From a virus: 64,000 nt of DNA. How positions within the stretch are numbered: position 1 is the first letter of the stretch; every line of letters begins with the position of its first letter. The translations under genes and the position numbers were made by a program. Positions 10,190 to 48,401 of this stretch are shown in pieces. The notes under the pieces were generated by a model, which had not been told where the DNA came from, searched no databases, and saw only the letters and a program-made list of their open reading frames with translations. The stretch is from positions 32,001 to 96,000 of the IMG/VR virus record IMGVR_UViG_3300044631_002422; one strand, 5' to 3'.

Positions 10190-10317
10190 GTGAGCAGTGG
10201 CCTGACAAGCAGGTACGACTCTCGACAGTTAAGGACCGGGAAGCTCCGGGCTGAACCGTTTCGTAGCGGTTACTGTTGATTGCTGCTGTTGGCGGTGTTC
10301 GATTCCCGCCGCTCACA
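10190..10317 (+). ncRNA. tRNA-like RNA with branched central domain
   Basis: GTGAGC/GCTCAC acceptor-like stem, T arm with TTCGATT loop, starts 7 nt after the -10 box. Confidence 0.6.
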
Positions 10318-10406
10318 TTTTTTAAAAATTCCGCTTGACATTCGTTGAGCGTAACGTATAATTCAAGAGTAACAAGTTCAGTTTTTTTTCACGAAGGGTT
10401 TTTACC

Positions 10407-11327
10407 ATGTCTACTGTTTCCCGTTCTAATGTTTCTGCCAACGAAATCTCGGCTCGCGTTGCCGCTGCTTTCAACTTCACTGTTGACAAGTTCCCGCTTG
10501 CTGGCCCAGATGGTCTTCGCACTCCGTGGTACGGTATGTTCCGCTCTGACAACAACGAAGTTGTTGGTAACGGTTCTGTAACCTCGCGGTACTGTCCACA
10601 CCAAACCGAAGACGTTCTCGCACTGGTGGATGCCGCCAGCGAAGCGTTTGAAGGTGTGGCGAGTGTTGACACCTACTTCCGCGATGGGCATTATGTCGCC
10701 ATCGAACCAACTCGCGAACAACGTTATGCGATTTTCGGCACTGCCGACAACATCTTTCCGCGTGTCGTGATTCGTGCGGGTTACGATGGCAAGGCGTTCA
10801 ACGCCGCGATGGGTTATTACCGCGATGCTTGCCGCAATCTGGCAATCATGCGACAAGTTAGCGGAACCACCGTTTCCATCCGCCACACTAGCGGACTGCG
10901 AAGCCGCATGGATTCGCTGATTCAAAGCTTTACGAGTCTTCGCGATTCGTGGCAAATGCTGGCCGCAACTGCGGTTCAGCTTGAATCAACTCGCGTGAAT
11001 CTTGCGGACTTCCTTCGCGAAGTTTACGGCGAACCCGAAACCGACAGCGGTCGTGCTGCGACTATCCATCGCAATCGTACCGAAACGATTTTCAATCGTG
11101 TGATGGATGAACGTAGCCGCACTGGTCGCGGTGCTATGCCAGCCGATTTCCGCGTCAGCGGTTGGGAAGCGTTCAACGCTGTGCAGGGATTCGTTCAGCA
11201 TGAATCAACTCGCAAGAGTTCGGCTCGCGGTGCTGCCGCAACCGGATTTGGTCGAATCATCGCCGCCGCTAACGATGCTGCGGTTCAACGTGCCGAACGT
11301 GCTGCGATGAATCTGCTCGCGGTTTAA
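10407..11327 (+). CDS. DUF932/DUF945-like phage protein
   Basis: VGNGSVTSRY..HQ, GYDG, R.ACRN, IRHT and WEAFNAV motifs. Confidence 0.75.
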   Translation: MSTVSRSNVSANEISARVAAAFNFTVDKFPLAGPDGLRTPWYGMFRSDNNEVVGNGSVTSRYCPHQTEDVLALVDAASEAFEGVASVDTYFRDGHYVAIEPTREQRYAIFGTADNIFPRVVIRAGYDGKAFNAAMGYYRDACRNLAIMRQVSGTTVSIRHTSGLRSRMDSLIQSFTSLRDSWQMLAATAVQLESTRVNLADFLREVYGEPETDSGRAATIHRNRTETIFNRVMDERSRTGRGAMPADFRVSGWEAFNAVQGFVQHESTRKSSARGAAATGFGRIIAAANDAAVQRAERAAMNLLAV

Positions 11328-11354
11328 TCTTTCGTGTGTTTCCTTTCGTGTGAG

Positions 11355-11388
11355 CCAGTGGCGGCATTTTGCCGCCGCTGGTTTTTTT
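11355..11388 (+). terminator. intrinsic terminator
   Basis: CCAGTGGCGGC/GCCGCCGCTGG stem followed by T7. Confidence 0.85.
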
Positions 11389-11516
11389 AGATAGGTGTAC
11401 AATGGTATACATACTAATCGTCATTGTGGCGTGTATTATATTTTTGATGCTGGAATTATAATTCCGGTTATACTCTGGCCGCCTAGCGCGGCCTTTTTTA
11501 TTATACTTTCGGTGAG

Positions 11517-46607: not shown

Positions 46608-46617
46608 AGAGGTATAA

Positions 46618-47688
46618 ATGAAAACTATTTTCAACACAGTAAATGTAGACCCAATGACTCAACCACTTTTCCTTGGTAAAGATTTAGGGGTTCAAAGATA
46701 TGATATTATTAAGTATCCTATATTCAAAGAGCTTGATAGCAAGCAAATGATGAACTTTTGGCGACCAGAAGAAATCGAACTTAAAAAAGATCGTGGCGAT
46801 TTTAAGGAAATGTCCGAGAACGAAAAGTTTATTTTTACGTCTAATCTTAAGTATCAAACAATGTTGGATAGCGTTATTTGTCGCGGAGTTCCAACACTGT
46901 TGGAATATGTAACAAATAGCGAGCTTGAGGCGTGTTTGATGACATGGCAATTCTTTGAAAAAATCCATTCTCAAAGTTATAGCTATATCATTCAAAATGT
47001 TTACGCAGATAGCAAAGAAATCTTTGATGGTATTTATGAAGATCGAGAAATCATGAAAAGGGCCAATAGCGCCATCGAAGACTACAACAATTTGATGGGC
47101 ATGACTTGTGATACAAATAAAATTTCTGACATAAAAAAACAAATTTATATGACTATTGTGAGTATAAATATTCTGGAAGCGGTTCGTTTTTATGTTAGTT
47201 TTGTGTGCAGCTTCGCTTTTGCTGAAAATAAGAAAATGGCTGGAAATGCAGATATAATCAAGCTAATCAAGCGAGATGAAGCGTTACATCTAGCAAATAC
47301 TCAGCAAATTCTGAAGATTTTACACAACGAAGAATCGGAAGGTTTTATTAAAACGTCACAACAATGCGAAGAAGCAGCTTGTGAACTGTTTAACAGAGCC
47401 GCAAAAGAGGAAAAGGAATGGGCATCTTATTTGTTTAAGAATGGCTCGATTATAGGTCTAAACGAAACTGTACTACATCAGTACATCGACTGGCTTGTAA
47501 TGTCAAGACGCAAAGCGATTGGATTGCCCTATGAAAATGTTGGCAAAAATCCAATTGCAGGATGGACAGAACACTGGATGAATAGTGAGGCTGTTCAAGT
47601 TGCTCCGCAAGAACATGAAATTACCTCATACAAAATAGGAGCTAGTAAAAATGATCTTGACGACATAGATTTTGGAGGCGTGTTATGA
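46618..47688 (+). CDS. nrdB: ribonucleotide reductase class Ia beta subunit
   Basis: FW.PEE, E.IHS.SY, EAVRFY.SF, RDEALH, APQE.EI.SY. Confidence 0.97.
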   Translation: MKTIFNTVNVDPMTQPLFLGKDLGVQRYDIIKYPIFKELDSKQMMNFWRPEEIELKKDRGDFKEMSENEKFIFTSNLKYQTMLDSVICRGVPTLLEYVTNSELEACLMTWQFFEKIHSQSYSYIIQNVYADSKEIFDGIYEDREIMKRANSAIEDYNNLMGMTCDTNKISDIKKQIYMTIVSINILEAVRFYVSFVCSFAFAENKKMAGNADIIKLIKRDEALHLANTQQILKILHNEESEGFIKTSQQCEEAACELFNRAAKEEKEWASYLFKNGSIIGLNETVLHQYIDWLVMSRRKAIGLPYENVGKNPIAGWTEHWMNSEAVQVAPQEHEITSYKIGASKNDLDDIDFGGVL

Positions 47689-48305
47689 AAGCTCTGCAAA
47701 GAACTGCGTCTGTTTTGTTTCTATCTCTTGTTTCCGTTTTTTTAATTTGTTCGAGTATTTATAGTCAAACATGTTTTATAAGGTGTGAACCAGACAAGGA
47801 AACCGGAGGCGGAGCTTGCGGATCTGGCTTTTTTATTTCAAAAAATGAAATTTTAACTGCGGCCCATGTAATAAATGACGCAAATAATGTTAGAATTGAA
47901 TTTGATGGAAAGTATTTTAAAGCTTTCGTTGTTAGACAAGATGCCACTAAAGATTTAGCCCTTCTAAGAATAGAAGAAGAGCATGATAAATTTTATAAAC
48001 TTAGTGACTCTTTCGGTAAAGCTGACCAAAAAGTAACTTGTTTTGGTTTTCCTAGAGGTGTTTGGACCTTGTATAAGTCAAGTGGTGTTATTAAGGAAGT
48101 TAATAGCGTTACAAGAGATTCTAGATATAAAGACAATCCGAGGATGGAATATGCTGTATTAATGGAAGTTACGAATGGAATGTCTGGAGGACCACTTCTT
48201 ACTGAAGATAAAACCGTAATAGGGGTTTTAAGCAGCAAGAATATTATTGGCGAACCAAGAGCTAATTTTATTGCTCTTGAAGATATAAAAAAGTTTCTTG
48301 ACTAA
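47685..48305 (+). CDS. secreted trypsin-like serine protease
   Basis: GSGF, LTAAHV, DLALL, GMSGGP. Confidence 0.9.
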   Translation: MKALQRTASVLFLSLVSVFLICSSIYSQTCFIRCEPDKETGGGACGSGFFISKNEILTAAHVINDANNVRIEFDGKYFKAFVVRQDATKDLALLRIEEEHDKFYKLSDSFGKADQKVTCFGFPRGVWTLYKSSGVIKEVNSVTRDSRYKDNPRMEYAVLMEVTNGMSGGPLLTEDKTVIGVLSSKNIIGEPRANFIALEDIKKFLD

Positions 48306-48315
48306 GTAAAATAAA

Positions 48316-48401
48316 GCGCGGGCCAAGTGGTTGGCAGTATTTAACTTAAATGACGATTAATGTTAAATACAGCAGTGCTGGTTCGACTCCAGCCCCTCGC
48401 C
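48316..48401 (+). ncRNA. tRNA-like RNA with 13-bp anticodon stem
   Basis: GCGCGGG/CCCTCGC acceptor, GCTGG-TTCGACT-CCAGC T arm, GTATTTAAC/GTTAAATAC stem. Confidence 0.6.

Follow-up and report, generated by a model that had tools for sequence, protein, structure and literature searches.

What does a virus gain from RNAs that keep the upper half of a transfer RNA (tRNA), namely the acceptor stem and the T arm, while their lower half looks rebuilt? The question is raised by six loci dispersed along the window analysed here, i.e., a stretch of 64,000 nucleotides (nt) corresponding to bases 10147-74146 of the 77.5-kb viral record IMGVR_UViG_3300044631_002422 (class linear in IMG/VR, 49% complete according to CheckV). 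All six lie on the + (coding) strand, at 10190-10317 (locus 1), 15723-15808 (locus 2), 26955-27044 (locus 3), 27431-27566 (locus 4), 29410-29506 (locus 5) and 48316-48401 (locus 6). An earlier note on this DNA had viewed them as a single system, in which the top half of a tRNA serves as a processing and stability scaffold for non-decoding RNAs, e.g., putative decoys for tRNA-targeting defence or stress sensors. The six loci are instead a mixture of two groups and not one system, since they are unrelated in sequence except for a weak link between loci 1 and 6. Loci 1, 3 and 6 (group A) appear as evolutionarily maintained structures unable to decode, and loci 2, 4 and 5 (group B) as aberrant tRNA genes, each of which may be either a young pseudogene or a further scaffold RNA. 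This combination of maintained, non-decoding, tRNA-shaped RNAs and aberrant tRNA genes is the best explanation at hand and is considered fairly probable.

The shared top half is real, as an acceptor-type stem and a T-type hairpin were found at all six coordinates, in agreement with the earlier note. A 7-base-pair (bp) acceptor stem together with a 5-bp T stem and a UUCRANY loop is complete in loci 4 and 5, nearly so in locus 6 and deviating in loci 1, 2 and 3. When a strict T-arm pattern (5 bp, G53-C61, UUCRANN loop) was applied with dinucleotide shuffles as control, 16 perfect T arms were retrieved on the + strand and 0 on the - strand, against 0.19 per strand in the shuffles. Real tRNAs account for ten of these arms, loci 4, 5 and 6 for three and a putative group I intron described further below for the last three, i.e., six orphan arms outside real tRNAs on the + strand and none on the - strand. 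Loci 1, 2 and 3 escape the strict pattern owing to a bulge in the T stem, a T stem of only 4 bp and a UGAAAAU loop, respectively. Respective to the lower half, the proposal that each locus had its D and/or anticodon arm rebuilt stands for loci 1, 3 and 6, which lack a decoding arm and where a 5-bp anticodon stem with a 7-nt loop is absent, but not for locus 2, which retains a perfect UCU anticodon arm and is the only one with such an arm at the standard position (6-bp stem, CUUCUAA loop); the corresponding loop has 9 nt in locus 4 and 6 nt in locus 5. As anticipated, none of the loci passes for a standard tRNA, with zero calls by ARAGORN at default settings or by Rfam at gathering score over the whole window. 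A permissive Rfam scan, covering 9500-30500 at E <= 10, gave only weak matches to the tRNA model (RF00005), namely 28.6 bits for locus 5 and 18.5 bits for locus 3 (curated cut-off 29), with the remaining loci unlisted and no known family matched.

The case for maintenance can be opened with locus 3 (26955-27044, +), a tRNA-shaped RNA of which ten distinct members, all in viral contigs, are available, and in which the closing stem and the T-type hairpin covary, the core is invariant and a further hairpin is variable. In the window, an 8-bp closing stem is followed by a 5-bp hairpin whose loop, UGAAAAU, fits the general T-loop motif and not the tRNA sequence, and the distant relative L014 exhibits the same core with a different closing stem and a different hairpin stem. 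Using an exact 18-nt core pattern with one base left free, viral contigs and one genome for each of 185,579 prokaryote species were scanned; the viral contigs yielded 23 loci including 14 family members (16 copies in all, 10 distinct sequences), and the prokaryotes 30 matches, all unrelated. About 45 positions are invariant in the family alignment, which spans distantly related phage contigs, and covariation is seen in the closing stem, in the T-type stem and in one further pair: 21/21 pairs are paired in every sequence, 11 of them have changed on both sides, the covariation score was reached by 0/500 shuffles and no slid register came close. At the D-loop position stands a hairpin variable in length and sequence. 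Locus 3 is without an anticodon arm, since its D-like and T-like parts are separated by 25 nt in which no more than a 3-bp helix forms, around an invariant loop of 14 nt. Conservation is also apparent against the sister phage G001 (IMGVR_UViG_3300044825_002278), compared over its whole sequence and syntenic with the window phage (G000) at about 78% nucleotide identity, where locus 3 is 86% identical, the adjacent tRNA-Thr 77% and the upstream open reading frame (ORF) 76%.

The genomic sites of the locus 3 family are varied, i.e., directly before tRNA-Thr(UGU) in four contigs, before tRNA-Glu right after a permuted transfer-messenger RNA (tmRNA) gene in another, and elsewhere before a permuted tmRNA gene, within a 16-tRNA array or next to tRNA-Ile, with array-like spacing; near protein genes, members lie about 40 nt before thyX (L026) and about 600 nt before nrdA. 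In the window, a predicted sigma-70-type promoter with a 12/12 match (26503-26531, +) stands upstream of the ORF 26591-26950, locus 3 and the tRNA array, with which locus 3 would be co-transcribed. Rfam 15 contains no family matching locus 3, giving a weak tRNA match only. Among GenBank phages, blastn with a family member found nothing and blastn with the array region returned ordinary tRNAs only. A second locus 3 pattern produced chance matches only, the locus 3 model applied to the collected relatives retrieved no extra members, and a metagenome scan with the neighbouring protein gave one 2.2-kb fragment. A riboswitch was also considered for locus 3 and rejected, the downstream genes being inconsistent (tRNAs, tmRNA, thyX, an HNH gene) and a U-rich 3' strand being present in some members only.

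Locus 1 (10190-10317, +) can be read as a stand-alone early gene with promoter-like and terminator-like signals of its own, encoding a 128-nt tRNA-shaped RNA in which acceptor stem and T arm are accompanied by a D-like hairpin and by a long arm whose tip is variable. Upstream, the -10 box of a predicted sigma-70-type promoter (10156-10183, +; 12/12 consensus) ends 6 nt 5' of G10190, a spacing of 6-7 nt kept in five relatives, and downstream, a U-run immediately following the 3' strand of the acceptor (10318-10323, +) is kept in all relatives; transcription should start at acceptor base 1 or one base earlier and end at the U-run. The acceptor stem has 6 bp; the T stem, likewise of 6 bp, contains a single bulged U and closes a canonical UUCGAUU loop. 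The next perfect promoter (10335-10362) drives a DUF932 gene, and homologues of locus 1 (100-132 nt) occur upstream of DUF932 orthologues of 76-94% identity in contigs from Logan, ENA and JGI (L085, L086, L087, L089 and L091/L092), with the same site, promoter spacing and U-run. The family follows a constant order, namely acceptor stem, D-like hairpin with GG in its loop, two helices, variable tip, conserved strings (UAGCGG and UGCUG..UUGG) and T arm, and its helices differ by compensatory changes: GCAG/CUGC or CCAG/CUGG in the first, UACGA/UCGUA, UAGGA/UCCUA or UAGGU/ACCUA in the second, and GCUGG/CCAGC versus GUGGG/CCCGC in the T stem. Within a model-fitted alignment of the family (A6), 96% of cells pair, 6 pairs have changed on both sides and the covariation score was reached by 0/500 shuffles. 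The family was not found in IMG/VR, where a pattern scan returned 78 unrelated matches, none with a T loop; DUF932 relatives at 54-59% identity have there a zinc-ribbon ORF or no element at the upstream position where locus 1 would lie.

Locus 6 (48316-48401, +) is an 86-nt tRNA-shaped RNA composed of an acceptor stem (6/7 pairs), a T arm with a 5-bp stem and, between them, a CCAAGUGGUUGG hairpin and a long AU-rich arm, located between a gene for a trypsin-like peptidase and thyX, 35 nt upstream of the latter. In the sister phage, the corresponding site behind the peptidase gene is occupied by a 118-nt orthologue, in which 22/22 predicted pairs are kept, with one compensatory change from G-C to A-U and an arm tip 32 nt longer; this was the only match of a pattern scan. 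The 5' module CCAAGUGGUUGG-CA is also present in the L091 member of the locus 1 family, and the best matches of the locus 1 model after its own members are locus 6 and its G001 copy (22-26 bits). A common origin of locus 6 and the locus 1 family is thus possible, yet unproven, because ordinary tRNAs and a truncated L090 copy reach 23 bits with the same model and overlap the range of locus 6. Taken over loci 1, 3 and 6, compensatory change appears to have kept both the acceptor/T stack and a D-like GG hairpin, and what stands in the place of the anticodon arm would be a long arm with a variable tip in loci 1 and 6 and an invariant, mostly unpaired 25-nt segment in locus 3.

Group B is of a different nature. 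Locus 2 (15723-15808, +) is an aberrant element resembling tRNA-Arg(UCU), with an extra arm of 25 nt and a U-run after it, called Arg(tct) by ARAGORN at lowered threshold only. It combines a 7-bp acceptor stem and a 4-bp T stem with a perfect 6-bp stem closing the CUUCUAA anticodon loop, and the T loop is kept; its tRNA-like fold reaches -15.6 kcal/mol against a minimum free energy (MFE) of -25.3, i.e., 9.7 kcal/mol above the MFE. Odd cloverleaves of the allo-tRNA type carry a long extra arm, and locus 2 can be drawn as a 7/4 molecule with its 25-nt extra arm and a UCU anticodon, in which case it has no D arm and the fold stays above the MFE. In the same slot, L085 has a canonical 74-nt tRNA-Arg(UCU) after the same stop codon, the end of the upstream ORF being nearly identical at both sites and homology breaking exactly at the stop codon. 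The most plausible reading of locus 2 is that of an aberrant element which has taken the position of a canonical tRNA-Arg(UCU). The earlier note had named decay of canonical tRNAs among homologues as an outcome that would count against it, and locus 2 provides this in part, as it replaces such a tRNA with the anticodon arm kept.

Loci 4 and 5 read as tRNA genes expanded by insertions. Locus 4 (27431-27566, +; fold z-score -2.9) is a 136-nt element between tRNA-Pro and tRNA-Ser whose top half is perfect (7 + 5 bp). Its D loop contains GGG, a 5-bp stem closes a 9-nt loop that includes UAG, and some 65 additional nt contain two hairpins. At lowered threshold only, ARAGORN takes it for a Leu(taa) gene with a 46-nt intron; its candidacy as a tRNA-Leu paralogue was rejected, no similarity being found to the Leu genes of G000 or G001. 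Locus 5 (29410-29506, +; 28.6 bits as given above) is a 97-nt element in which a perfect 7 + 5 bp top half is combined with a D region enlarged by A-rich sequence and with a 5-bp stem carrying a 6-nt loop, followed by a U8 run and then by a perfect promoter (29525-29552). It opens a 2.3-kb segment (29332-31672) missing from G001, and an unrelated 139-kb phage contig (L171) encodes a 73-nt tRNA with exactly the same acceptor stem and T arm. The tRNA array of that contig also holds two tRNA-like genes (1576-1657 and 1869-1945, -) with ARAGORN anticodons of 4 nt and 2 nt.

Could all six loci be decaying tRNA pseudogenes, i.e., tRNA genes carrying insertions or degraded introns and devoid of RNA function? 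Several observations on group B point that way, namely the position of locus 2 in the slot of a canonical tRNA-Arg(UCU) of a close relative with a disfavoured cloverleaf fold, the resemblance of locus 5 to a normal tRNA (the L171 top half) disrupted by A-rich insertions and left with a 6-nt loop, and the absence of loci 2, 4 and 5 from the sister phage and of locus 6 from L010. As an account of the whole set, decay is nonetheless unlikely considering the compensatory changes across many sequences in loci 1 and 3, the slower evolution of locus 3 than of the real tRNA adjoining it, the conserved dedicated promoter and terminator predicted for locus 1, and the zero mismatches in the acceptor and T stems of loci 4 and 5, unexpected under uniform decay where the middles have become unrecognisable. 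Preserved pairing had been put forward against decay for the whole set; the top half indeed appears under selection in loci 1, 3 and 6 (covariation, compensatory change), whereas decay is possible for loci 4 and 5 because they have no homologues. Neutral decay is likely for group B only.

For the maintained RNAs of group A, a scaffold function is plausible by analogy. The tRNA top half would make the transcript a substrate for host tRNA maturation, with RNase P acting if a leader is present, followed by 3' trimming and CCA addition, and the same top half may stabilise and protect the RNA as in the engineered tRNA scaffold. In the latter, devised by Ponchon and Dardel, the acceptor, D and T parts are reportedly kept and the anticodon stem is extended by another RNA, for processing and stability; loci 1 and 6 share this layout, with the difference that the scaffold is man-made and the loci are natural and conserved. 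The conserved lower part would then be the working end, binding a conserved partner in trans as a tRNA mimic. As such, the processing scaffold of the earlier note fits the layout of loci 1, 3 and 6, but locus 1 probably needs no RNase P handle because its transcript probably starts at the mature 5' end.

A number of points weigh against this explanation. Searches for a Ro gene, a CCA enzyme and an antisense target found no partner protein or complementary target: in particular, no phage CCA-adding enzyme emerged from the protein search, and the window shows no enrichment of sequences complementary to the invariant loop of locus 3. In several members of the locus 3 family, the closing stem is extendable to 8-10 bp, more than a tRNA acceptor has, and with such a length it may simply close the RNA as a generic helix, without serving as a substrate for RNase P or CCA addition. 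The covariation alignment of locus 1 was fitted to the model and is hence biased towards the structure, for which it was weighed alongside the helices read by eye, and the family was sampled from three diverged lineages only. Locus 6 is known from two sequences and, because it is missing in the third relative L010, where the same site is empty, is dispensable. Finally, no homologues were found for loci 4 and 5, hence selection on them is not demonstrable.

Alternatively, the loci may act in cis as tRNA-like punctuation, i.e., processing or termination signals setting the ends of neighbouring messenger RNAs, tRNAs and tmRNA, with the excised RNA as a by-product. Such signals are known elsewhere, as the mascRNA of MALAT1 is a tRNA-like processing signal. 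In plant mitochondria, the t-elements, i.e., degenerate tRNA-like structures beside coding regions, mark RNA ends (PMC1920247) and offer a precedent. The positions of loci 2, 5 and 6, which follow or precede ORFs and have U-runs after them, would fit this likeness; more broadly, a U-run stands 0-1 nt 3' of loci 1, 2, 5 and 6, perfect promoters come after loci 1 and 5, thyX follows locus 6 after 35 nt and the L026 member of the locus 3 family after some 40 nt, and members of that family adjoin tRNA or tmRNA genes at distances like those within an array. Those precedents are, however, eukaryotic or organellar, and the conserved cores of loci 1 and 3 (internal loops in the former, some 45 invariant nucleotides in the latter) exceed what a processing or cleavage signal needs. 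Locus 1 further has no upstream cistron to process, and ordinary hairpin terminators occur elsewhere in the window (e.g., 11352-11384), making cis punctuation an improbable account.

A more specific proposal is that RNAs of the locus 3 family and of the locus 1/6 class mimic tRNAs in trans, being produced early or alongside the phage tRNAs; their elbow and acceptor would dock on a host factor handling tRNAs while the invariant lower part blocks or diverts it. Candidates for such a factor would be a tRNA-cleaving defence nuclease or a tRNA-sensing regulator, and if true, this would amount to RNA-based counter-defence of a kind not yet described. We regard it as quite improbable in this specific form. 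The remaining possibility, that some loci are odd but decoding tRNAs, with locus 2 reading AGA as tRNA-Arg(UCU) and locus 4 using its 9-nt loop with UAG, is very unlikely: while locus 2 fills a tRNA-Arg(UCU) slot with its perfect 6-bp stem and CUUCUAA loop, ARAGORN finds no other Arg(UCU) or Leu(UAG) tRNA in the window, and odd cloverleaves with a longer acceptor and a shortened T stem (12 bp in total, 8/4 or 9/3) are reported from bacteria and phages (PMC5389517), locus 2 is left without a D arm when best paired and has 3 acceptor mismatches when read the other way, locus 4 is burdened with a 9-nt loop and about 65 extra nt, both fall below the E-value 10 reporting limit of the Rfam tRNA model in the permissive scan, and no usable anticodon loop is present in loci 1, 3, 5 and 6, locus 2 at most fitting.

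With maintained, non-decoding RNAs beside aberrant tRNA genes as the preferred explanation, how do these loci relate to known systems? For decades, phage tRNA regions have been recognised as sources of small RNAs whose role is unknown, and the nearest published counterparts of the present loci are RNAC and RNAD of phage T4. Both have a tRNA-like end. These two small non-coding RNAs derive from the tRNA gene region, and their biological roles are unknown (PMC3014915). By description, which is the level at which T4 was compared, loci 3 and 4 are alike in lying inside the array region (26955-27891), and loci 1, 2, 5 and 6 differ in lying outside the tRNA array, locus 1 with a predicted promoter of its own. 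Besides, tRNA-like candidates have been reported in bulk in phages (PMC10690425). The kind, i.e., phage tRNA-region small RNAs of unknown role, is therefore already known, and the locus 1 and locus 3 families are absent from Rfam 15. As such, the candidate undescribed system of the earlier note is reduced to two defined families with covariation, both absent from Rfam 15, given that the kind is known and the loci are a mixture. What is new consists of the two covarying families, the predicted dedicated early promoter of locus 1 and the evidence that the six loci are a mixture. The two families are concrete, short targets for experiments on the function of tRNA-shaped RNAs, and the mixture is a warning against treating every tRNA-shaped locus as functional, as one replaces an ordinary tRNA-Arg and two are supported by shape alone.

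Two other known RNAs with tRNA-like modules deserve comparison. The YrlA-type Y RNAs of bacteria and phages (RF02553) are non-decoding and contain a tRNA-like module; their ends form a Ro-binding stem and their acceptor-like stem is closed by a loop, whereas in the six loci the RNA ends form the acceptor stem. Together with this difference, the absence of a TROVE/Ro gene (PF05731) from the 77.5-kb record, itself 49% complete, and of any RF02553 match, either in the whole window at gathering score or within 9500-30500 at E <= 10, led to the rejection of the six loci as Y RNAs. The tRNA-like domain of tmRNA likewise joins acceptor and T arm in a module that lacks an anticodon arm. In the window, a real tmRNA gene, in one piece (29045-29333, +; Rfam RF00023, 77.1 bits; orthologue in G001), lies 77 nt upstream of locus 5, and members of the locus 3 family abut permuted tmRNA genes in relatives; in difference to tmRNA, however, the G3:U70 pair is absent from 6/6 loci, there is no tag reading frame and no Rfam tmRNA match occurs outside 29045-29333. 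More distant relatives have permuted two-piece tmRNA genes, in contrast to the one-piece gene of the window phage. Directly 5' of the latter stands a DUF1559/N-terminal-methylation pilin-like gene (28007-29333 for both, +), of a type typical of Planctomycetes.

The putative group I intron mentioned above splits a tRNA-Leu gene (19226-19755, +; ARAGORN with introns allowed). It does carry three more T arms, as had been noticed, the T-arm scan placing them at 19378-19394, 19410-19426 and 19445-19461; these perfect hairpins lie within a 106-nt insertion at P6 according to the Rfam alignment, in an element spanning 19353-19469 (+) that is closed by a 7-8 bp stem and gives a weak tRNA-Sec-like match (20.3 bits). 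The Rfam Intron_gpI match is weak (19.9 bits, cut-off 50) and includes the R and S core elements. On both sides lie tRNA-Leu exons, which match the intronless tRNA-Leu(UAA) at the same site in G001 (13316-13401). ARAGORN reads the split gene as tRNA-Leu(CAA), and splicing after U33 and the terminal G would give a UAA anticodon, as in the G001 orthologue. Because this orthologue is intronless, the intron would be a recent gain or loss.

Besides the six loci, ARAGORN finds nine ordinary tRNAs in the window. The tRNA array (27048-27891, +; ARAGORN, Rfam) runs Thr, Gln, Ile, Asn, Pro, Ser, Tyr, Asp and contains locus 4. Of the six loci, the sister phage has 3 and 6 but not 2, 4 and 5; its contig stops short of the site where locus 1 would lie. 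Protein-coding genes in the window include ribonucleotide reductase, DnaB, UvdE, IMPDH/GMP reductase, a DUF932 protein, a DUF1559 pilin-like protein and RecA with an intein, the recA gene (55423-57525, +) being split by a LAGLIDADG homing-endonuclease domain of intein type. Relatives of the phage have DUF1501 genes, which together with the DUF1559 gene of the window suggest a planctomycete as the likely host. Five sigma-70 promoters with a 12/12 consensus are found on the + strand (10156-10183, 10335-10362, 14515-14542, 26503-26531 and 29525-29552), three of which directly flank tRNA-shaped loci, i.e., before locus 1, after locus 1 and after locus 5. In the early region, a match to the Pistol self-cleaving ribozyme lies at 3004-3065 (+; Rfam RF02679, 47.7 bits against a cut-off of 34.5). 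Among the more distant relatives, gathered via protein searches and contig look-ups, further oversized acceptor/T-arm RNAs uncalled by ARAGORN occur at L016:14565-14667, L084:59-203 and L079:~1042-1202, one of them just 5' of a permuted tmRNA gene, a place where L030 has a member of the locus 3 family. Matches to the manA RNA motif (Rfam RF01745, 56-59 bits) likewise lie between tRNA genes of relatives (L016:1885-2065 and L012:11963-12146).

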